A stretch of 64,000 nt of DNA from the NCBI GenBank assembly GCA_965217775.1, contig CBDCJH010000002.1:928001-992000 (forward strand), written 5' to 3'. This document shows, in pieces, positions 6,679 to 62,630 of this stretch (the first letter of the stretch is position 1; every line of letters begins with the position of its first letter). The translations under genes were made by a program, and so were the position numbers. The stretch is from Acidobacteriota bacterium (GTDB lineage: Bacteria > Acidobacteriota > UBA6911 > RPQK01 > JAJDTT01). Below the pieces are notes generated by a model. It searched no databases. It had not been told where the DNA came from and worked only from the letters and a program-made list of their open reading frames with translations.

Positions 6679-6762
6679 AGCGAAGATCTATCGGGCCGGC
6701 GGCCCGCAACGAAGGTGGTAACGACTTTCGCCGCGGGCTGCCTGGGCCCGGACGGATATCGG

Positions 6763-9828: not shown

Positions 9829-9892
9829 GTAGAGGGGGGGCTTCCAGCCCCCCCTGACCCCCCCGAATCGGCGGCAAGAAAGCCGCCGCTCC
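9829..9892. repeat. REP-like inverted doublet
   Basis: GTAGAGGGGGGGCTTCCAGCCCCCCC on + followed by GGAGCGGCGGCTTTCTTGCCGCCG on -. Confidence 0.6.
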
Positions 9893-12324: not shown

Positions 12325-12347
12325 GGAGGGGCGATTTCCAATCGCCC
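12325..12347 (+). repeat. GGAG-REP hairpin facing the 52-bp array
   Basis: GGAGGGGCGATTTCCAATCGCCC, identical to the copy at ~62524. Confidence 0.65.
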
Positions 12348-12386
12348 ATTCCTGCGTTGGCCCGCGGGCTCATTCCACCCTACATT

Positions 12387-12748
12387 CGTGCGCCTCTCCA
12401 TCACTTGGGAGATCGGCGGTTGGAAACCGCCGCTCCATCGTGCGCCTCTCGATCACTTGGGAGATCGGCGGTTGGAAACCGCCGCTCCATCGTGCGCCCC
12501 TCGATCACTTGGGAGATCGGCGGTTGGAAACCGCCGCTCCATCGTGCGCCCCTCGATGCCTTGGGAGATCGGCGGTTGGAAACCGCCGCTCCATCGTGCG
12601 CCTCTCGATGCCTTGGGAGATCGGCGGTTGGAAACCGCCGCTCCATCGTGCGCCCCTCGATGCCTTGGGAGATCGGCGGTTGGAAACCGCCGCTCCATCG
12701 TGCGCCCCTCGATGCCTTGGGAGATCAGCGGTTGGAAACCGCCGCTCC
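12387..12748. repeat. tandem array of 7 x 52-bp units, each containing a REP palindrome
   Basis: Unit CGTGCGCCYCTCGAT(CA/GC)CTTGGGAGATCGGCGGTTGGAAACCGCCGCTCCAT, starting at 12387, 12439, 12491, 12543, 12595, 12647 and 12699. Confidence 0.97.
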
Positions 12749-12753
12749 GTTCC

Positions 12754-13749
12754 TCAAAACCGGGGACTCGGCCAGTAATACTGGCGGCGGTGGAGTATCT
12801 TGCCGGTGGGTTCGCTGCATTGGACCCGGATGGTCCGGAACTTGTGGTCCGATTCGAGAGGTGGGCGGAAGGTGAGAACGTACTGGCTCTTGAGTTCCCG
12901 GGCCAGTTCCGTATACCTGTCCGTGAGTTCCTCCAGCCTCTCGGGAAAGAGGGCCCGACCCCCGGTCGCCTCGGCCAGGTGGAGCATGGCCCTCTCCTTC
13001 TGCTCGAAGTAGGCTTCGACGAAGTCCTCCTCCGGATTCACCAATTCGGACATCACCCGGTTCAGGAATTCGACCCGATTGCTCCGGCCCACTTCGTCCC
13101 GGATCAGGCGGGTCCTGCTGATGATGTAGAGGGCGACGTTGGACGCGATCAGGCGCTCGACGATCTGGTCGTAGCTCTGACTGCTCTCGTTGTCCAGGCC
13201 GTCGGTGAGCAGGATGATGGCTTTCTTCCCGCTGACCCGGGACAGTTGCTTGTTGGTGGTGGTCCACAGAGCGTCGTACATGGCGGTCCGATAGCCGGGC
13301 TTGAGCTTCCTGAGGGCGCGGCGAATCGATCTCAGGCTCGAAGTCCAGTCCCGGAGCACTTGGACGCGGTCGGAAAAGGTGATGACGGAGAACCGGTCGT
13401 TTCGCTGAAAGGAACGGGCGAAGTCGAGGGCCGCTTGTGCGATCTGCTTCAACTCGCTGCGGATGCTGCCGCTCACGTCCAGCAGGAGAGCCACGTGGAT
13501 GCGGTCCTGGTCCAGCACGAAGTTCTCGATGGCCCGGGGGCTGTTCTCATCCAGCAGGGAGAAGTGTTCCCGTTCCAGATGAGTCAAGAGCTTCCCCGTC
13601 GGCCCGAAGACGGTGACCGGAACCCGGATGAAGTTGGCCCGGACTCGAAACGAGGGGGGGACGGAATCCGAGGAGGGTTGGGACTGGATGGATTGGATCG
13701 CTAGAAACCAGCAGGCGCTGAACAGGACGACTCCACTCCGAAACCTCAC
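12754..13749 (-). CDS. VWA domain protein (VWFA-related, Acidobacterial type)
   Basis: Signal peptide, FRVRAN..VPVTV, MIDAS LLDVSGS, TAMYDA, LTDGLD, ELKSQYVLTF. Confidence 0.88.
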   Translation of the reverse strand: MRFRSGVVLFSACWFLAIQSIQSQPSSDSVPPSFRVRANFIRVPVTVFGPTGKLLTHLEREHFSLLDENSPRAIENFVLDQDRIHVALLLDVSGSIRSELKQIAQAALDFARSFQRNDRFSVITFSDRVQVLRDWTSSLRSIRRALRKLKPGYRTAMYDALWTTTNKQLSRVSGKKAIILLTDGLDNESSQSYDQIVERLIASNVALYIISRTRLIRDEVGRSNRVEFLNRVMSELVNPEEDFVEAYFEQKERAMLHLAEATGGRALFPERLEELTDRYTELARELKSQYVLTFRPPLESDHKFRTIRVQCSEPTGKILHRRQYYWPSPRF

Positions 13750-22943: not shown

Positions 22944-23025
22944 TAGGGGTGGCTGTTTCAGTCGGTATCGGCCCAGCCTCAATCCTTGGACCAGCAGGCA
23001 TCAGGTCGGACAACACCGGATATCC

Positions 23026-23062
23026 GTAGGGGCACCCCTTGTGTGTGTGGGTGGGTGCCCTC
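23026..23062 (+). repeat. GTAG-REP with an expanded (TG)n loop
   Basis: GTAGGGGCACCCCTTGTGTGTGTGGGTGGGTGCCCTC versus GTAGGGGCGCCCCTTGTGGGCGCCCTC at 55379. Confidence 0.65.
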
Positions 23063-23066
23063 TTAC

Positions 23067-23224
23067 CAGCCCGTGGCAAAAGTCATCACGGCATTCGACC
23101 GTCCCTGCATCCCGGCGGACGGCGTTGCGATTCGGGCACATACTCCCGGTATGCACCCGAATCGCGCCTTGTCCGGCGGGCGCAGGAACGGTCTCGGTGC
23201 TCGCGGGACTTTCACCACGGACTG
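23067..23224 (+). mobile_element. MITE family A, copy 1 (158 bp)
   Basis: TIRs CAGCCCGTGGCAAAAGTC / GACTTTCACCACGGACTG, flanked by a TTAC duplication. Confidence 0.93.
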
Positions 23225-23243
23225 TTACCTCCGAAGGGAGCCA

Positions 23244-24206
23244 TCACCCTTGGTACGGCGAAAGGGTCGGCCAAGCCCCGCGAACGCGGCCGTGGTGGCG
23301 TGTCAGCCGGGGGAAGTCGGGCGAGTTCGGATCCGGCCTCCGAGGCCGTAGATCCGGTCCGAGATAGAGACAGCCGACCTCCTCAGGAGGGAGCTTGCTC
23401 ACGGTCGCTCCGGCCGAATCCACCGCCGCGATCCAGCGCAGCTTCAGCATCCTGAGATCAAGCGGTTCCCTCAAACTGAGGTGATCGAGATCCGTCTGAC
23501 GATAGGCGACGTGCCGTCCCATCTGATCCAGCAGAAACTCCGGCGTGAAGCCGGGGTCTTTGCCGCTGGCCGCCCATACCAGACCGCCGAGCGAAAGATA
23601 CGTGTCGTGCAGGTGCAACACATCCACGAAGTCACGGATCTCACTGCGTCCCGCCAAGGCCAGGACCTTGTTGGTCGCAGCGTCGGCGTCGTGTAGCCGA
23701 TAACCGCAGAGGTCGTCCTTTTGGACCGGAAAAAAGCGGAAGGCGCTGTCGTAGGCCCATTCCATCTTCAGATGCTGATCCGCAATTACTACAATAGCTC
23801 GTTGGAACGTCGGGGTGCGCAGTAACCATGAGAACACGTATCCGGCATGCCGAAGCGATTTAGCATCCGCCGCCGCGCTCTGGGCGATGCTGTCGTCCAG
23901 GTCGTGGAACAGATCGATATCTTCCGAGAAACGTGGCGAATCGGCATCTCGATGTAGCAGTCCGTGGTGAAAGTCCCGCGAGCACCGAGACCGTTCCTGC
24001 GCCCGCCGGACAAGGCGCGATTCGGGTGCATACCGGGAGTATGTGCCCGAATCGCAACGCCGTCCGCCGGGATGCAGGGACGGTCGAATGCCGTGATGAC
24101 TTTTGCCACGGGCTGGTAGGACCGTAGCGCCCGCAACGTAGCTTTCCGGACTGCGATTGGCGGCGATCTGGCGCAGAATTTCGGCTTGTGAAGAGGTTAG
24201 CGGCAT
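23244..24206 (-). CDS. AbiEii/AbiGii-like nucleotidyltransferase carrying an in-frame 54-aa MITE insert
   Basis: Removing the insert gives YVAGATVL|HRDADSPRFSEDIDLF, plus NKVLALAGRSEIRDFVD, which fit type IV toxin NTase motifs. Confidence 0.8.
   Translation of the reverse strand: MPLTSSQAEILRQIAANRSPESYVAGATVLPARGKSHHGIRPSLHPGGRRCDSGTYSRYAPESRLVRRAQERSRCSRDFHHGLLHRDADSPRFSEDIDLFHDLDDSIAQSAAADAKSLRHAGYVFSWLLRTPTFQRAIVVIADQHLKMEWAYDSAFRFFPVQKDDLCGYRLHDADAATNKVLALAGRSEIRDFVDVLHLHDTYLSLGGLVWAASGKDPGFTPEFLLDQMGRHVAYRQTDLDHLSLREPLDLRMLKLRWIAAVDSAGATVSKLPPEEVGCLYLGPDLRPRRPDPNSPDFPRLTRHHGRVRGAWPTLSPYQG
23958..24115 (-). mobile_element. MITE family A, copy 2 (intragenic, in-frame)
   Basis: 158 bp with a CTAC duplication (GTAG on +), giving 162 bp net. 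Confidence 0.95.
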
Positions 24207-24445
24207 AGCTTCGCGGCTAGCAGAAATCCGGAATGGCCGCCGTTCTTTCTCAGACCATCGACAATCATTGGCAGGTCTGCGAGCGTTATTTCCAGGTCAG
24301 CGCGCAGGTACCAGAAACACTGCCCATGGAAACGCCGAAATGCCCACCTCGCGGTGCGCAAACGAGCCTCATCGGTCAGATCGGACGATGTCCCGGATGA
24401 TTGCTCTTGAGGGGAAACGCGCCCTTGCGCCACATCGGTCTGCAT
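24197..24445 (-). CDS. small protein overlapping the NTase start, putative antitoxin/partner
   Basis: 82 aa with FHGQCFWY...LRKNGG. Overlaps the downstream gene by 10 nt. Confidence 0.65.
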   Translation of the reverse strand: MQTDVAQGRVSPQEQSSGTSSDLTDEARLRTARWAFRRFHGQCFWYLRADLEITLADLPMIVDGLRKNGGHSGFLLAAKLCR

Positions 24446-24665
24446 GACGAATCTCCTTCGGGCGTTCGCCCGGTTTCCAACGTTTCTCGAAGTTTACCAG
24501 TCCGCGCCATTTGTCGTAGAGCATCGATATCGGTTGGCCCTGGGGGCCTATGCTGTACGATCCGCGACGCGGAATTCTGATTCGCATGTGAGCGTAACCA
24601 AAACCAGGAAAAAGAAAATCCCAGGATGCCGGGACACCTTCATCTTTCTACAGTAACCTGCACCC

Positions 24666-26213
24666 GTGACCAGACGCCGACTGCCCATCGGCATCCAGAC
24701 CTTCCGCAAGATTCGGGAGCAGGATTTCTACTACGTCGACAAGACGATCCATATTCGCCGGCTCCTCGGCCACGGCACGCACTACTTTCTGTCGCGTCCG
24801 CGGCGTTTCGGAAAAAGCCTGTTCCTCGACACCTTGAAGGAGCTGTTCGAGGGCAACGAGCCGCTGTTCGAGGGCCTCGACATCCACGACGGCTGGAACT
24901 GGTCGGTTCGCCATCCGGTGTTGAATCTGAGTTTCGGCCGCGGCAACAACAAAGAGCCGGGCTACGTCGAGGCGAATCTCATGGAGCAACTTGCCGCCGC
25001 CGAGCGTCGCGCGGGCGTCGTCGCCCACTACGCCACGGCGGCCGGACGTTTCTCCTCCCTGATCGAGGCATTGCATCGACAGACTGGCCATCCGGTGGCG
25101 GTGCTCATCGACGAATATGACAAGCCGATTCTGGATGCTCTGGAGGCGCCGGAGATCGCTCGCGCCAATCGCGACTTTCTGCGCGGCCTCTACGCCGTCG
25201 TCAAGGACAGCGACGCGCACATCCGGTTCAGCTTCATTACCGGAGTGAGCAAGTTCTCCAAGGGTAGCCTCTTCTCCGGCCTCAATAATCTCCAGGACAT
25301 CACTTTGGACCGGCGCTACTCTGCCATCTGTGGCTACACCGAGTCGGATCTGGACATGGTGTTCGCACCGGAACTCCCGGGCCTCGACCGCGATGATATC
25401 CGCGACTGGTACAACGGCTACAGTTGGTTCGGCCAGGAAAGGGTCTACAACCCTTTCGACATCCTCCTGCTCTTCGACAGTCGCAGATTCGGCGCCTACT
25501 GGTTCGAAACCGGCACACCCAAGTTCCTGGTCGACACGCTCTTCAAGCGGCAGGTCAGATCCGTGGCGTTGGATGACATGGTGGGGAGCAGCGATCTGCT
25601 GTCGACCTTCGACGTGGACGAAATGGCAACGGAAGCGCTGCTGTTCCAGACCGGTTACCTCACCATCACGGGGACCGAGGACCTTGGCGGAGAGCTACTC
25701 TATCGGTTGGGCTATCCCAACCGGGAGGTGCGGCAGAGCCTGAACCGAAGCCTGTTGCGCCACTTGGTGCGGGACTCGTCGCGTCAGATGGCCAACAGCG
25801 TCCGCCTGTACCGGCTGTTGGAGGCCAACGACTTCGCCGGACTCGAGACGCTGTTCCATGCCTTCTTCGCCAGCATCCCCTACGATTGGTACACGAACAA
25901 CGACATCGCCAACTATGAGGGCTACTACGCGAGCGTCGTCTACTCCTATTTCGCGGCTCTGGGTCTTGACATTACCGTGGAGGACAGCAGCAGCCACGGG
26001 CTCCTGGACATGGCGGTCCGTTTCAAAGGCAACGTCTACCTGTTGGAGTTCAAGGTGGTCGAGTTCGCCCCGGTGGGCGCCGCGATGGCGCAATTGAAGG
26101 CGAAGCGGTACGCGGACAAGTACCGTGGGTCAGGACAACCGATCTATCTGATCGCCGTGGAGTTCAGCCAGGAGTCCCGCAACCTGGTGGCGTTCGAGGT
26201 GGAGCGCGCTTGA
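24666..26213 (+). CDS. AAA-ATPase-like protein with a C-terminal PD-(D/E)XK nuclease (DUF1703/PDDEXK_9 type)
   Basis: LPIGIQTF, YVDKT, RPRRFGKSL, LIDEYDKP, WYNGY, YPNREV, D...EFK...Q...Y. Confidence 0.9.
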   Translation: MTRRRLPIGIQTFRKIREQDFYYVDKTIHIRRLLGHGTHYFLSRPRRFGKSLFLDTLKELFEGNEPLFEGLDIHDGWNWSVRHPVLNLSFGRGNNKEPGYVEANLMEQLAAAERRAGVVAHYATAAGRFSSLIEALHRQTGHPVAVLIDEYDKPILDALEAPEIARANRDFLRGLYAVVKDSDAHIRFSFITGVSKFSKGSLFSGLNNLQDITLDRRYSAICGYTESDLDMVFAPELPGLDRDDIRDWYNGYSWFGQERVYNPFDILLLFDSRRFGAYWFETGTPKFLVDTLFKRQVRSVALDDMVGSSDLLSTFDVDEMATEALLFQTGYLTITGTEDLGGELLYRLGYPNREVRQSLNRSLLRHLVRDSSRQMANSVRLYRLLEANDFAGLETLFHAFFASIPYDWYTNNDIANYEGYYASVVYSYFAALGLDITVEDSSSHGLLDMAVRFKGNVYLLEFKVVEFAPVGAAMAQLKAKRYADKYRGSGQPIYLIAVEFSQESRNLVAFEVERA

Positions 26214-26372
26214 CAGCCCGTGGCAAAAGTCGTCGCGGCATTCGACCGTCCCTGCATCCCGGCGGACTGTGTTGCGATTCGGCTCACATACTCCCGGTAT
26301 GCTCCCGAATCGCGCCTTGTCCGGCGGGCGCAGGAACGGTCTCGGTGCTCGCGAGACTTTCACCACGGACTG
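26214..26372 (+). mobile_element. MITE family A, copy 3 (159 bp)
   Basis: TTGA duplication that includes the ATPase stop codon. A few substitutions and a 1-bp insertion. Confidence 0.93.
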
Positions 26373-26418
26373 TTGACGGCGCGAGATCCTCCGCGGCGCG
26401 CTGCCAAATGGAGGGAAC

Positions 26419-27000
26419 ATGCCGATCTATGATGAATTCGAAGTGTCCCTGCGTTACATCGAACCACGCATCTGGCGGCGCTTCCAGATCGAGAGAAGAG
26501 CGACCTTCGCCCACCTCCACGTAGCGATTCAAGTCGGCTTCGGCTGGGAGCATGCTCACCTGTGGGAATTTCGCACCCGCGCCCGTCGCGGGCGGGCGCT
26601 GGCAGGCCCGGCGATGGACGACGTCTGGAGCCTGCGCGAACCGCCGCCCGATGCGGAATCGACCAAGCTGGCGGGGTTCTTCGGCCCTCGCAAGCACCGG
26701 AGATGCGTCTATGTGTACGATTTCGGCGACTTCTGGGTCCACGACGTGTTGTTCCGGCGGCGCTTCGCGTCCCAGGCGCGGTTCCATCGACGACTGATCG
26801 CCGGCGAGCGCTCCGGTCCACTGGAAGACTGCGGCGGCGTCCCCGGCTACGAACGGCTTGTTGAGTTCTTGCAGACGGGAGTCGATCCCTGGGAGGAAGA
26901 CCCCGCGGTGCTCAAGGAATGGTACGGCCACTGGGACCCGGAGGCGTTCGACCTCGAAACTGCCAGGATGCGCTTTGTCTGGCCCGGCCGCAGCACCTGA
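26419..27000 (+). CDS. plasmid pRiA4b ORF-3 / IS1096 passenger TnpR-like protein, copy A
   Basis: IEPRIWRRF, LH..IQ..FGW...HLWEF, YVYDFGDFWVH, PLEDCGGVPGY. RBS GGAGG. Confidence 0.9.
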   Translation: MPIYDEFEVSLRYIEPRIWRRFQIERRATFAHLHVAIQVGFGWEHAHLWEFRTRARRGRALAGPAMDDVWSLREPPPDAESTKLAGFFGPRKHRRCVYVYDFGDFWVHDVLFRRRFASQARFHRRLIAGERSGPLEDCGGVPGYERLVEFLQTGVDPWEEDPAVLKEWYGHWDPEAFDLETARMRFVWPGRST

Positions 27001-27164
27001 CGGCAGTCCCGGGAAAGCGCGAGACTGGCGATGGAACTTCTCCGCGGGACCGAGAAGGGGGACAGTCACTTTCTATCCTCGTGACTGCGGTCGTATCATC
27101 CTCCTTCCCCCTTACAATCCTGGGGGCCTATGGTATCAAGTACGGGACAGGCCTTGAGGAGTAA

Positions 27165-27322
27165 CAGTCCGTGGTGAAAGTCCCGCGAGCACCGAGACCG
27201 TTCCTGCGCCCGCCGGACAAGGCGCGATTCGGGAGCATACCGGGAGTATGTGCCCGAATCGCAACGCCGTCCGCCGGGATGCAGGGACGGTCGAATGCCG
27301 TGATGACTTTTGCCACGGGCTG
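27165..27322 (-). mobile_element. MITE family A, copy 4 (158 bp)
   Basis: GTAA duplication on both sides. Confidence 0.93.
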
Positions 27323-27403
27323 GTAAGGAAGCTCTACCGAATATCCCGACCGACGGACTGCTCATCGGCGAGGCCGGTCATTATGGATAAGGAGTCTCCA
27401 GCC

Positions 27404-27637
27404 ATGCAAAAGGTGCTGCACCTGAGAACGACAGTGCTGCCCGGAGGCAAAATTGAAATCGTGGACCGCGAACTTCCGGTGGGTGCGTCCGTTGACGTGG
27501 TCGTCCATCCCTTCTCGGTCTCGGCACAGCGGTCCGCCGTTGACATCCTGGACGAAGCGCCGGGCCGGCGCCTCTTCAAGACCGGAGAGGAGGTGGAGTC
27601 GTATCTGGAGGACGAGCGCGCATCGTGGGACCGCTGA
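27404..27637 (+). CDS. putative antitoxin of a type II TA pair
   Basis: RBS AAGGAG, 77 aa, ends YLEDERASWDR and overlaps the PIN gene. Confidence 0.7.
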   Translation: MQKVLHLRTTVLPGGKIEIVDRELPVGASVDVVVHPFSVSAQRSAVDILDEAPGRRLFKTGEEVESYLEDERASWDR

Positions 27638-28065
27638 CTCTTCCGCCTGACGGGCCAATCTATCTCGATGCCACTGGGTTCATCTATGGCGTGGAGCGCA
27701 TCGAACCCGACCGAGCGTTGCTTGAACCCATGTGGCGGCAGGCTCAGGCTGGGCAGTTCACCATCGTCAGTAGTGACTGGGTAATTCTGGAGACTCTCGT
27801 CAAGCCTCTGCGTGAGGGCGACACGGTTGTCGAGATGCTATTTCGCTCACTACTCGACGCCAATGAGGTGACTCTCATCCCGGCCACCCGCCCACTGTGG
27901 GAAGATGCCGCGCGTCTACGTGCCGAGACGGGCTTGAAGACGCCCGACGCGCTTCACGCGGCTACAGCTCTGTACGCCGAATGTACGCTCTTTGTCACCA
28001 ATGACGCGGACTTTCGACGGTTCGAGGACCTACCTGTCGTTGTCTTGGATGACCTTCTGGAATAA
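27625..28065 (+). CDS. vapC: PIN-domain (VapC-family) toxin
   Basis: IYLDAT, E in helix, LKTPDALHAATA, FVTNDADF. Confidence 0.88.
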   Translation: MGPLTLPPDGPIYLDATGFIYGVERIEPDRALLEPMWRQAQAGQFTIVSSDWVILETLVKPLREGDTVVEMLFRSLLDANEVTLIPATRPLWEDAARLRAETGLKTPDALHAATALYAECTLFVTNDADFRRFEDLPVVVLDDLLE

Positions 28066-28187
28066 GAGGGCCTGTTCGGCGTCCACGTCGGTCACTATCG
28101 CTGCAAATCGAAGCGAAGGGATCCAGGACGGTCGATTCCTGGGACTCCACCGGCACGCGGAATCCATGCTCCCGTCCAGTAGCCGCG

Positions 28188-28787
28188 GTGACCGAGACGT
28201 TGGCGCGCGCCACGTATGATGAATTCGAAGTGTTCCTGCGTTACATCGAACCACGCATCTGGCGGCGCTTCCAGATCGAGAGAAGAGCGACCTTCGCCCA
28301 CCTCCACGTAGCGATGCAAGTCGGCTTCGGCTGGCAGCATGTCCACCTGTGGGAATTTCGCACCAGTGCCCGTCGCGGGCGGGCGCTGGCAGGCCCGGCG
28401 ATGGCCGACGTCTGGAGTCTGTGCGAACCGCCGCCCGATGCGGAATCGACCAAGCTGGCGGGGTTCTTCGGCCCTCGCAAGCACCGGAGATGCGTCTATG
28501 TGTACGATTTCGGCGACTTCTGGGTCCACGACGTGTTGTTCCGGCGGCGCTTCGCGTCCCAGGCGCGGTTCCATCAACGACTGATCGCCGGCGAGCGCTC
28601 CGGTCCACTGGAAGACTGCGGTGGCGTCCCCGGCTACGAACGGCTTGTTGAGTTCTTGCAGACGGGAGTCGATCCCTGGGAGGAAGACCCCGCCGTGCTC
28701 AAGGAATGGTACGGCCACTGGGACCCGGAGGCGTTCGACCTCGAAACTGCCAGGATGCGCTTTGTCTGGCCCGGCCGCAGTACCTGA
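28188..28787 (+). CDS. plasmid pRiA4b ORF-3-like protein, copy B
   Basis: Near-identical to 26419..27000 from YDEF onward, with a different N-terminus and an uncertain start. Confidence 0.8.
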   Translation: MTETLARATYDEFEVFLRYIEPRIWRRFQIERRATFAHLHVAMQVGFGWQHVHLWEFRTSARRGRALAGPAMADVWSLCEPPPDAESTKLAGFFGPRKHRRCVYVYDFGDFWVHDVLFRRRFASQARFHQRLIAGERSGPLEDCGGVPGYERLVEFLQTGVDPWEEDPAVLKEWYGHWDPEAFDLETARMRFVWPGRST

Positions 28788-28893
28788 CGGCAGTCCCGGG
28801 AAAGCGCGAGACCGGCGATGGAACTTCTCCGAAACCGGGCCGGGAAGAACGGCCGCTACTACCTGTGGTTGCGGGTTGCGGGGGAGGATTCCT

Positions 28894-33091: not shown

Positions 33092-33249
33092 CAGCCCGTG
33101 GCAAAAGTCATCACGGCATTCGACCGTCCCTGCATCCCGGCGGACGGCGTTGCGATTCGGGCACATACTCCCGGTATGCACCCGAATCGCGCCTTGTCCG
33201 GCGGGCGCAGGAACGGTCTCGGTGCTCGCGGGACTTTCACCACGGACTG
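33092..33249 (+). mobile_element. MITE family A, copy 5 (158 bp)
   Basis: CTAG duplication, in the divergent ccsA/trpS intergenic region. Confidence 0.95.
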
Positions 33250-37842: not shown

Positions 37843-38000
37843 CAGTCCGTGGTGAAAGTCCCGCGAGCACCGAGACCGTTCCTGCGCCCGCCGGACAAGG
37901 CGCGATTCGGGTGCATACCGGGAGTATGTGCCCGAATCGCAACGCAGTCCGCCGGGATGCAGGGACGGTCGAATGCCGTGGCGACTTTTGCCACGGGCTG
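37843..38000 (-). mobile_element. MITE family A, copy 6 (158 bp)
   Basis: TTAG duplication. Confidence 0.93.
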
Positions 38001-41775: not shown

Positions 41776-42696
41776 GTGGATTCCGAAGGGAAAGAAAAGA
41801 AACTCTTTCAAGCCCTGGAGCGGTATCGTCGAGTCGTCGTGGCTTTCAGCGGCGGCGTCGACAGCAGTTACCTGGCCTTCTGCGCCCACCGGGTATTGGG
41901 CAACGAATCGCGTGCCGTCACGGCCCTTTCGCCCTCCGTTTCCGGGTACCAGCGCCGGCTGGCTCTGGATTTCGCCCGGCGCTACGAGTTGAATCACACG
42001 CTGATCGAGACTCGGGAGACGGACAATCCCGACTACGCCCGGAATCCCACGAATCGATGCTACTTCTGCAAGGATGAACTCTACGTTCACCTGAAGAGAT
42101 TGGTCCAGGAATGGAATGCGGAAGCGATTCTGGACGGCTCGAACCTGGACGACATCGGCGACTACCGGCCTGGCCGGCGCGCCTCTCGAGAGCAGGGCGT
42201 CCTGAGTCCCTTCATCGACGTGAAGCTGAGCAAGGACGAGATCCGGTCCCTGTCCCTCAAATGGGGTCTCCCCACCTGGGACCTTCCGGCCATGCCCTGT
42301 CTCTCCTCCCGCTTTCCCTACGGTGTCGCCATCACCGAGGAGAAGCTGCAACAGGTCGACGCGGCCGAAGCGTACATCCGGAGCCTGGGGGTGATCAGCT
42401 TCCGGGTGCGTCACCACGAGGAACTGGCTCGGATCGAGGTCGACCGCGCGGAGCGGCACAAGCTGATGGACCCGGATCTCTTCGACGACATCAACCGGAA
42501 GTTCCGCTCCCTCGGATATAGCTATGTCACTCTGGATCTGCAGAGTTTTCGATCCGGCTCCCTGAATCAGGTGGTGAACCTGGAACTTTCTTCCGGACAG
42601 ACCAAGCAGTCTGCGGGGAAAGTCCCACGCAGCACCGAGACCGGGGCTGCGCCCGCCGGACAAGGCGCTCTGAGGAAGCATACCGGGAGTATGTGA
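41776..42696 (+). CDS. larE: ATP-dependent sacrificial sulfur transferase LarE-like, with a MITE-derived C-terminus
   Basis: VAFSGGVDS, RCYFCK, DYRPG, PCLSSRFPYG, RVRHH, VTLDL..FRSGS. Confidence 0.88.
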   Translation: MDSEGKEKKLFQALERYRRVVVAFSGGVDSSYLAFCAHRVLGNESRAVTALSPSVSGYQRRLALDFARRYELNHTLIETRETDNPDYARNPTNRCYFCKDELYVHLKRLVQEWNAEAILDGSNLDDIGDYRPGRRASREQGVLSPFIDVKLSKDEIRSLSLKWGLPTWDLPAMPCLSSRFPYGVAITEEKLQQVDAAEAYIRSLGVISFRVRHHEELARIEVDRAERHKLMDPDLFDDINRKFRSLGYSYVTLDLQSFRSGSLNQVVNLELSSGQTKQSAGKVPRSTETGAAPAGQGALRKHTGSM

Positions 42697-42766
42697 CCGA
42701 GGAGCAACGCGTCTCCGCCGGGATGCAGACCCGGTCGAATGCCGTGATGACTTTTGCCGCGGGCTG
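42607..42766 (-). mobile_element. MITE family A, copy 7 (degenerate, 160 bp)
   Basis: CAGTCTGCGGGGAAAGTC...GACTTTTGCCGCGGGCTG. Flanks are CAAG/CTTG, so there is no direct duplication. Confidence 0.85.
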
Positions 42767-57932: not shown

Positions 57933-58029
57933 CAGTCCGTGGTGAAAGTCCCGCGAGCACCGAGACCGTTCCTACGCCCGCCGGGATGCAGGGACGGTCG
58001 AATGCCGTGACGACTTTTGCCACGGGCCG
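57933..58029 (-). mobile_element. MITE family A, copy 8 (97 bp, internal 61-bp deletion)
   Basis: Both ends retained, central hairpin lost between CCGCCGG direct repeats. Flanks are CCAG/CTAG. Confidence 0.88.
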
Positions 58030-61180: not shown

Positions 61181-62497
61181 ATGGCTAACGTCGTGATCGT
61201 CGGCACCCAATGGGGTGACGAAGGCAAAGGGAAAATCGTCGATCTGATCACCCGTCACTTCGACGTCGTCGCCCGTTACCAGGGCGGCCACAATGCCGGC
61301 CACACCGTTTCCGTGGCGGGGGCCAAGTATGTTCTCCACCTGATTCCGTCGGGGATCCTTCACCCCGACAAGGTGTGCGTCATCGGCAACGGGGTCGTGG
61401 TGGACCCGGTGGCTCTGGAAGAGGAACTGCTGGCGCTGGAGGAGTTTTCTCTGGAGGAACGGCTCCATGTCAGCAACCGGGCACACCTGATCATGCCCTA
61501 CCACCGGTTGCTGGAGGGCGCCGAGGAAAGTCGGCTGGGCAAGGCGAAGATCGGAACCACGAGCCGGGGCATCGGCCCCTGTTATGAAGACAAGATGGCC
61601 CGCCGGGGCATCCGGGTCGGCGACCTGTTGTCGCCCCGGCTCTTCCGCTCCAAGCTCCGAAACTATGCGGATCTGAAGAACCGCATTCTGAACCGGGTCT
61701 ACGGGCGTGACGGGGTGGACACTGGCCAGATCGAAGAGACCTATCTGGGCATCGGCGAACGGATCGCCTCTTATGTCACCGACACGGCCGAGTACCTGAA
61801 TCGGGAGATCCGGCGGGGAAAGAACATCCTCTTCGAGGGCGCCCAGGGAACGCTGCTGGACGTGGATCACGGGACCTATCCGTTCGTCACCTCCTCGAAT
61901 GCCACGGCCGGTGGAGCCTGTACCGGGAGCGGAGTGGGGCCGGGAGCCATCGACGGAGTGATGGGAATCACCAAGGCCTACACCACTCGTGTCGGAGGCG
62001 GGCCGTTTCCCACCGAGTTGGACGGTGCGGAGGGGGAGGAGATCCGGGAGCGGGGCGTCGAGTACGGCGCCACCACGGGGCGGCCCCGGCGTTGCGGATG
62101 GTTCGACGCCGTCGTGGCCCGCTACAGCAATCTGATCAACCACGTGGACACGCTCGTCGTCACCAAATTGGACGTTCTGGACCATTTGAAAGAGCTTCGG
62201 ATCTGTACCGGCTACGGCTACGGAGGGACCCGAATGACGAGTTTCCCCACCGACGTGGGAGCACTTGAAGACGTGAGCCCCGTCTACGAGACGCATCCCG
62301 GATGGCAGCAGGACACCTCCGACATTCAGAATTACGACGACCTGCCGGAGCAGGCCAAGTCCTATCTGCATCGGCTTGGCGAGCTCACCGGTGCGGATAT
62401 CTCCATCATCTCCACCGGTCCGAACCGGTCCGAAACCATCATTCTGGAGGAGAGCCCCCGGCTCCAGCGCCTACTGAAACCGCGCCGCGTGGCGTGA
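61181..62497 (+). CDS. purA: adenylosuccinate synthase
   Basis: QWGDEGKGK, GGHNAGHT, EGAQG, TTGRPRRCGW, TKLDVL. Confidence 0.97.
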   Translation: MANVVIVGTQWGDEGKGKIVDLITRHFDVVARYQGGHNAGHTVSVAGAKYVLHLIPSGILHPDKVCVIGNGVVVDPVALEEELLALEEFSLEERLHVSNRAHLIMPYHRLLEGAEESRLGKAKIGTTSRGIGPCYEDKMARRGIRVGDLLSPRLFRSKLRNYADLKNRILNRVYGRDGVDTGQIEETYLGIGERIASYVTDTAEYLNREIRRGKNILFEGAQGTLLDVDHGTYPFVTSSNATAGGACTGSGVGPGAIDGVMGITKAYTTRVGGGPFPTELDGAEGEEIRERGVEYGATTGRPRRCGWFDAVVARYSNLINHVDTLVVTKLDVLDHLKELRICTGYGYGGTRMTSFPTDVGALEDVSPVYETHPGWQQDTSDIQNYDDLPEQAKSYLHRLGELTGADISIISTGPNRSETIILEESPRLQRLLKPRRVA

Positions 62498-62629
62498 GGA
62501 GGGGCGATTTCCAGTCGCCCACAGGAGGGGCGATTTCCAATCGCCCATTCTCCGGCGCCAAATTGCGACTCCGGAGTTCGGCGGTTAGAAACCGCCGCTC
62601 CCGTTCGGCGACAAGAAAGTCGCCGCTCC
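62498..62629. repeat. REP cluster (two on +, two on -) between convergent genes
   Basis: GGAGGGGCGATTTCCARTCGCCC twice, then CGGCGGTTAGAAACCGCCGCTCC and CGGCGACAAGAAAGTCGCCGCTCC. Confidence 0.78.
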
Positions 62630-62630
62630 A

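Follow-up and report, generated by a model that had tools for sequence, protein, structure and literature searches.

When a MITE lands inside a toxin gene and leaves its reading frame open, is the toxin silenced, are the extra residues tolerated, or has the gene acquired a switch? The window, a 64,000-nucleotide stretch of an Acidobacteriota genome, raises this question in an AbiEii-type toxin gene that carries such an element between two of its catalytic motifs. We postulate a recent, neutral-to-favored knockout of a dispensable toxin by a MITE mobilized in trans, with the upstream partner gene left intact, and we regard this explanation as probable, if some way from certain.

A MenT-like toxin gene and its small upstream partner

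The toxin open reading frame (ORF) is free of stop codons and encodes 320 aa with the insert and 266 aa without it. The inserted protein scores 25.5 bits against Pfam PF08843, above the gathering score of 22.5, and its closest homolog among the best 120 of 3,369 (P0001; uninterrupted, 91% identical, 266 aa) scores 35.1 bits. PADLOC agrees weakly (AbiEii, E 1e-5). A profile of the toxin had 0 matches to PDB sequences at E 10, and the structural relationship came from a fold search. The AlphaFold2 model of P0001 (pLDDT 88.6, with a helix at residues 27 to 30 after the motif I glycine) aligned with 4ok0 (JHP933; Z 13.3, rmsd 3.8, 204 residues aligned), 6y56 (MenT4; Z 13.3, rmsd 5.9, 229 aligned), and 6j7n (MenT3; Z 12.6, rmsd 4.1, 211 aligned), and Foldseek likewise gave the MenT/JHP933 fold. 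The Pfam match and the modeled fold support the assignment to AbiEii/DUF1814-type nucleotidyltransferases (NTases) with a bilobed MenT/JHP933 fold, as had been predicted from the letters alone. Since MenT3 adds pyrimidines to tRNA 3' ends (PMC7450476), tRNA nucleotidylation would be the expected activity by analogy.

Using the published AbiEii motif definitions (motif I, hG[G/S/A]; motif II, R-x-S-x-D-h-D; PMC3985639), we located motif I at G26 and motif II at R92, S94, D96, and D98; motif III is K180/R187, and motif IV is R191-D192-x-x-D195. The motif I and II residues are each kept in 117 to 119 of the best 120 of 3,369 homologs, and in the toxin alignment (A2) K180, R187, R191, and D195 are invariant and D192 is nearly so. 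The catalytic core anticipated by the original prediction is present, although not in the GGT form that it gave: motif I reads AG-A-T here. An A at the second position of motif I is known in some homologs, and AbiEii residues G49, R63, D67, and D69 are reported as essential, a D-to-E change alone abolishing toxicity (PMC3985639). Seven of the 120 listed homologs (P0002, P0055, P0011, P0018, P0062, P0079, and P0115) have core-motif substitutions and may be natural knockouts or sequencing errors. An enrichment of such point-inactivated toxins among close relatives was not convincing (2/16 versus 5/104).

No AbiEi/COG5340 antitoxin was detected upstream of the toxin; the upstream gene encodes an 82-aa partner. 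It has 49 homologs, mostly of 82 aa, and matched no family in Pfam, NCBIfam, or PADLOC; in the ESM Atlas it falls among clusters of unnamed proteins of 66 to 88 aa. The partner weakly matches (E 0.007 in a small search) an ORF without annotation that directly precedes a Bosea toxin of 35% identity, and it shows no similarity to the 111-aa gene upstream of a Devosia toxin homolog. Several partner and toxin homologs come from contigs of equal size (29514, 5710, 9476, 1846106, and 101157), which is indirect evidence of linkage between the two genes. A promoter and terminator scan upstream of the operon gave nothing informative.

In PF08843 membership, motifs I to IV, and fold, the protein is like the AbiEii, MenT1, MenT3, MenT4, and JHP933 toxins, including AbiEii of Streptococcus agalactiae; this allele differs from them by 54 aa inserted between motifs I and II. 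It also differs from the AbiE (AbiEi-AbiEii) type IV system in having no AbiEi/COG5340, and the operon would be a MenAT1-type pair at most. The partner, small, encoded upstream, and without known family, recalls MenA1, a small antitoxin of 68 aa (PMC10435456), and a similar antitoxin role for it is probable.

Table 1. Features of the toxin locus and MITE copies in the window, numbered from its first nucleotide
Feature	Position	Strand	Basis
Toxin gene assigned to AbiEii/DUF1814 (MenT-like) nucleotidyltransferases	23244..24206	-	Pfam, PADLOC, alignments, folds
158-bp MITE, in frame; with the duplication adds residues 31-84	23958..24115	-	
Target-site duplication CTAC (gene strand), copy downstream of element	23954..23957	-	
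Target-site duplication CTAC (gene strand), copy upstream of element	24116..24119	-	
82-aa conserved partner gene, intact, overlaps toxin start by 10 bp	24197..24445	-	
MITE copy, 100% identical, 19 bp past toxin stop, in opposite orientation to the toxin copy, TTAC duplication intact	23067..23224	+	
159-bp MITE copy exactly at stop codon of AAA-ATPase/PD-(D/E)XK gene, TTGA duplication	26214..26372	+	
MITE copy, intergenic	27165..27322	-	
MITE copy, 100% identical, intergenic, CTAG duplication	33092..33249	+	
MITE copy, intergenic between aminotransferase and lumazine-binding gene	37843..38000	-	
Diverged 160-bp MITE copy (85%) over last codons of larE, without perfect duplication	42607..42766	-	
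Internally deleted 97-bp MITE copy between RNase J and ftsK genes	57933..58029	-	

The insert and its likely effect on the toxin

The element in the toxin gene has 18-bp terminal inverted repeats (TIRs) that match at 15 of 18 positions and is flanked by a perfect 4-bp duplication. It adds 158 + 4 = 162 bp, or 54 aa, between L30 and H31. The in-frame 54-aa MITE in a stop-free ORF that was originally described is therefore borne out by TIRs, duplication, and eight two-ended copies in the window, as is the insert length of 162 bp, made up of element plus duplication; the element's ends, which had been drawn codon-aligned at 23955-24116, were 1 to 3 bp off. Alignment to uninterrupted homologs, proposed as a check, also agrees: the insert is absent from the best 120 of 3,369 (lengths 221 to 281 aa), the site is empty at the protein level in homologs of 85 to 91% identity, and the 266 aa left without the 162 bp is the length of the closest homologs.

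The 54 MITE-derived residues are rich in Arg, Ser, Gly, and His, carry a net charge of +8, and are predicted to be disordered. As nucleic acid the element forms a hairpin of -97 kcal/mol (z = -8). An Rfam search of positions 23000 to 24300 returned no family and one chance match (HIF-1 IRES, 13.6 bits versus 110), and a distant blastn search of plasmids with the MITE returned 14 short matches, none spanning 80%. The toxin copy and two others in the window are 100% identical over 158 bp, and four further identical copies (L032, L045, L055, and L070) occur in one GTDB Acidobacteriota genome.

A multicopy palindrome of 158 bp, with identical copies 0.7 kb apart, is the kind of repeat that exceeds short reads and could be misjoined into a gene during assembly. 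Yet the duplication is perfect and specific to the site, the flanks are exactly contiguous in homologs, and the other copies bear different duplications of their own, so we consider an assembly artifact extremely improbable.

The span from the motif I glycine to the motif II aspartate is 17 residues in 120/120 listed close homologs and 71 in this allele, which places the insert between the two motifs, as predicted. Counted otherwise, the spacing is 14 residues in all 120 and 68 here, so that the gene family lies within the AbiEii spacing criterion of about 9 to 15 residues and this allele far outside it. We also searched 150 representatives of distant homologs, of which 93 fitted the motif pattern and 57, many of them fragments, did not. 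The span is 14 to 18 in 91 of the 93 and 21 in another; a span of 98 in one was a pattern artifact caused by an N-terminal extension.

The insert follows L30, the last residue of helix 27-30 in the P0001 model. Comparing structures predicted with and without the insert, as had been suggested, we found residues 27 to 85 below pLDDT 50 and the helix lost in the inserted allele, against the pLDDT of 88.6 for P0001. The low score of the insert itself is weak evidence, since any insert without aligned sequences receives one. Outside this region the inserted model still folds (mean pLDDT 74.4) and keeps its match to MenT/JHP933. Beyond the insert, the toxin differs at only 2 of 126 highly conserved positions (G154 and S160), and its catalytic residues are intact. 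The duplication recreates L-H-R after the insert.

An alternative hypothesis is that the 54 aa extrude as a loop, as inserts of Rickettsia palindromic elements (RPE) may, leaving full or partial NTase activity that the 82-aa partner still restrains. Such tolerance would suit an insertion at the end of a helix, beside a loop that varies by 2 to 3 residues in distant homologs, and the intact catalytic residues, partner gene, and remaining fold; there is a precedent in Rickettsia, in which guanylate kinase (Gmk) retains activity with an RPE insert (PMC2229807). However, the spacer is invariant in 120/120 listed close homologs, natural variation amounts to about 3 residues rather than 54, and H31 is conserved in 114 of the 120. 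Other in-frame copies of the element split conserved domains (integrase, DUF4276, GGT), a pattern that suggests random landing more than selection for loops that tolerate an insert. We therefore consider a tolerated loop unlikely.

Silencing is favored instead by the invariant spacing and by the absence of the motif I helix from the modeled allele, and given how sensitive these motifs are reported to be (PMC3985639), an inactive toxin is the likelier result. NTP/Mg binding would most likely be abolished or severely weakened by the 54 basic, disordered residues, and at the mRNA level the hairpin may in addition lead to cleavage or stalled ribosomes. Some observations sit less comfortably with a knockout. 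The catalytic residues are all kept and the gene shows no other decay (as a recent event would also predict), substitutions in the core motifs are not clearly more frequent among close relatives, and with the remaining fold intact in the inserted model and L-H-R regenerated, the loop is perhaps displaced rather than broken. We speculate that the allele survives because a toxin can be lost at no cost as long as its antitoxin is intact, whereas selection removes copies that land in needed genes.

Reading frame, element family, and autonomous partner

The open reading frame was originally read as special. It is an arithmetic default: 158 + 4 is divisible by 3 and five of the six frames of the element are open, so read-through is the usual outcome. 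Simulated insertions at the 15 YTAN/NTAR sites of the toxin gene, in both orientations, read through in 27 of 30 cases, and those across the coding sequences (CDSs) of the window did so in 894 of 946. Three of the 15 target-like sites fall in codons 22 to 30, so landing in the motif region is unremarkable as well. The toxin gene would thus have stayed translatable by length arithmetic and five open frames rather than by design.

The same state recurs in unrelated genes. At L032:1397-3352 (minus strand), an IS1634 transposase (NF033559, 302 bits) is split in frame at profile position 170/171 by a 100% identical, reverse-oriented MITE. Searching with the 54-aa peptide, which represents one frame only, we found it in 60 proteins among 73 candidates. 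It is present at full length in 42 of the 60, with at least 40 aa on both sides in 17, near the N terminus in 11, and near the C terminus in 14; some of these matches are probably mis-called starts or spurious ORFs. Domains split by the peptide include DUF4276 (P0128), YeiB (P0141), tyrosine integrase (P0145 and P0147), and gamma-glutamyltransferase (GGT; P0151), and other proteins that bear it include an RHH antitoxin, a DUF3368 protein, a DNA methylase, and an IS4-like transposase. Four proteins (P0122, P0127, P0167, and P0179) contain two head-to-tail copies, representing tandem elements.

Open frames are not conserved across the family, numbering 0 to 4 of 6 in 19 representatives, and the five open frames of the window variant were reached in 89 of 2,000 shuffles. 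Selection for open frames was not convincing, with per-position counts of 12, 4, 11, 4, 0, and 10 against expected values of 8.9, 2.6, 8.5, 6.2, 1.0, and 5.6.

A degenerate TIR pattern run against GTDB genomes yielded at least 118 loci, 80 of them with long flanks; the pattern demanded TA in the target, and target statistics from this set are therefore biased. The family is spread across phyla, mainly in Acidobacteriota and also in Planctomycetota and in myxobacterial and deltaproteobacterial genomes. One transposase family adjoins the TIR in 28 of the 118 loci listed. Among 18 candidates inspected (one, L042, was mis-extracted), the autonomous elements are 1,437 to 1,535 bp long with a single frame of 455 to 493 aa. 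IS1182 (NF033551) was the best NCBIfam match in all six transposases scanned, at 157 to 180 bits against a cutoff of 270, and DUF772 + DDE_Tnp_1 were found in all three scanned with Pfam. The scores are also below the IS5 cutoffs, and a 50%-identical plasmid relative is annotated as IS5 family. In size, domains, short TIRs, and 4-bp CTAG-type duplication these partners are like IS1182/IS5-type insertion sequences, and the MITE has its ends and 4-bp duplication in common with them. It is not a simple internal deletion of such an element, since its interior has no BLAST similarity to the autonomous elements. The interior may resemble CIR/RPE cores.

No transposase matched in the 64-kb window at E 0.01, and no autonomous partner was seen in the four loci with identical MITE copies. 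A non-autonomous 158-bp MITE would thus have been mobilized in trans by an IS1182/IS5-like DDE transposase with the same TIRs and would recently have entered, at a CTAC site, an operon made up of a small antitoxin and a MenT-like toxin.

Of 61 short two-ended elements, a count that includes the window's eight along with those at the loci listed (one duplicate locus and one 64-bp pair excluded), 27 are exactly 158 bp and 43 are 157 to 161 bp; 40 have a perfect 4-bp duplication. The 19 representatives left after 85% de-replication of the 155-162 class measure 158 bp (12), 159 bp (5), 160 bp (1), and 161 bp (1), at a median identity of 54%. In an alignment of 21 elements (A6), from which the structure was itself derived, 25 of 38 consensus pairs are changed on both sides, exceeding all 500 shuffles and every slid control. 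The opposite strand of the MITE folds more stably in 20 of the 21, which suggests a constraint at the level of the single strand. The alignment also shows a conserved internal loop and terminal stem, and GANTC occurs in that stem in some variants, a feature known from CIR repeats (PMC2229807). Length classes of 107, 128, 137, 148, 158, 178, 271, and 284 are roughly 10.4-bp periodic (p 0.016 to 0.07, over 9 to 15 hand-picked classes), and helical phasing for end synapsis is possible.

The family resembles RPE, ERIC/RU-1, YPAL/RU-2, and the 107-bp NEMIS in being a hairpin MITE of about 150 bp that has open frames and is fused in frame in unrelated genes, transposases included. Earlier work has already described MITEs that knock genes out, that fuse with them in frame, or that lie within transposase genes (PMC10969869, PMC2229807, PMC2759123), and about 10% of prokaryotic MITEs are reported not to be intergenic (PMC11602168). 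Our family differs from RPE in several respects: the duplication is a 4-bp YTAN/NTAR where RPE have TA, we could identify an autonomous partner whose ends match, one or two of the eight window copies are intragenic against nearly half for three RPE families, and neither open frames nor a peptide is conserved across the family. A search of literature listings, limited to openly available papers, showed no earlier account of this MITE family or of an AbiEii gene interrupted by a MITE.

Target sites and neighboring copies

Copies in the window are depleted from genes. Only one or two of the eight overlap a CDS, whereas 474 of 636 target-like sites lie in one (p 4e-4 if one copy is counted and 5e-3 if two are), as determined with a home-made gene caller that missed several small genes, cut the toxin ORF short, and called the toxin copy intergenic. 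That copy is the only one inside a gene; one more overlaps the last codons of larE. The larE copy has inverted flanks (CAAG/CTTG), and read-through swaps the last codons and adds about 27 aa. Of nine sites labeled as CDS, domain scans bore out an interrupted gene at L032 alone.

Twelve of the 33 GTDB copies with long flanks among the loci listed lie exactly at a stop codon (L012, L021, L027, L033, L036, L045, L052, L054, L065, L066, L077, and L079), as does the window copy at 26214. At these loci the host stop codon is the end of the target duplication, and the element starts directly after it. YTAR targets coincide with stop codons in 11 of 26 cases versus 17 of 320 background sites (p 4e-7), and noncoding YTAR targets do so in 11 of 22 versus 17 of 144 (p 1e-4), the loci being partly dependent and the gene calls crude. 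No orientation bias was apparent after stop codons (7 forward and 9 reverse of 16). The stop-codon bias reflects either targeting or survival filtering.

We speculate, with more doubt than confidence, that the length is actively held at 158 bp and that the compensatory one-strand hairpin, the stop-codon preference, and the 54 codons added in genes go with it. The element would then minimize damage, provide RNA structure behind genes, and supply RPE-like in-frame peptides, and its length could be set by reading frame or by helical phasing (15 turns).

The eight two-ended copies in the window each have their own, differing duplications where these are present, and four lie in a 6-kb accessory island at 22944-28893 that holds 86 of 643 target-like sites (p 0.014). 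The island contains the AbiEii-like pair, an AAA-ATPase/PD-(D/E)XK gene, a PIN toxin with a small upstream partner, and two near-identical pRiA4b ORF-3 genes (26419-27000 and 28188-28787; 97% over 300 bp). A lone TIR-like end lies at 6723-6740. A second repeat family forms seven tandem 52-bp units at 12334-12801, and related units together with dispersed REP-like palindromes occur at 9868, 35732, 40475, 55445, and 62497-62630.

At 23067-24115, the toxin gene's 3' three quarters lie between two identical inverted copies, which could in principle serve inversion or composite transposition; we saw no sign of either event. With both duplications intact, the assembled state is not an inverted one, and a past inversion between the two copies is rejected on the same grounds.

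This arrangement bears on the last reading, a programmed reversible switch in which precise excision, or flipping between the two inverted copies, would toggle the toxin. Precise excision would give back the 266-aa frame, and an identical inverted copy is at hand. In DDE excision, however, the precise loss of one copy of a 4-bp duplication is rare. In IS492 (eps), IS1301 (siaA), and IS5 (fucAO-fucPIK, at a CTAG site), a gene is likewise interrupted with a short duplication and precise loss would restore it (PMC5493358). These precedents differ from our case, in which no recurrence at the site was seen, no sign of excision was found, and the element is non-autonomous. Known systems use a recurrent hotspot, whereas this insertion was seen once only among the 120 listed close homologs, 150 distant homologs, and 60 peptide matches (90%-identity clusters could hide alleles). 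Moreover, excision needs no in-frame state, both duplications are intact, the window has no transposase, and a hit in the motif region is unremarkable. The switch proposed in the original prediction thus finds no support, and we regard it as very improbable. If a tRNA-targeting toxin were truly toggled by excision, that would be striking, but nothing that we found points there.

By itself, the single toxin allele matters little, as MITE knockouts and in-frame fusions have already been described. It has a practical consequence: interrupted ORFs that remain full-length and free of stops still pass the Pfam cutoff, so toxins, integrases, and transposases that are probably dead are scored as intact by annotation pipelines. 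The part worth following is the family itself, with its fixed length, covarying hairpin, and stop-codon bias, rather than the toxin allele. It is a rare case of a bacterial MITE with an identifiable autonomous partner and offers a clean system in which to set the evolution of harm limitation against filtering by selection.
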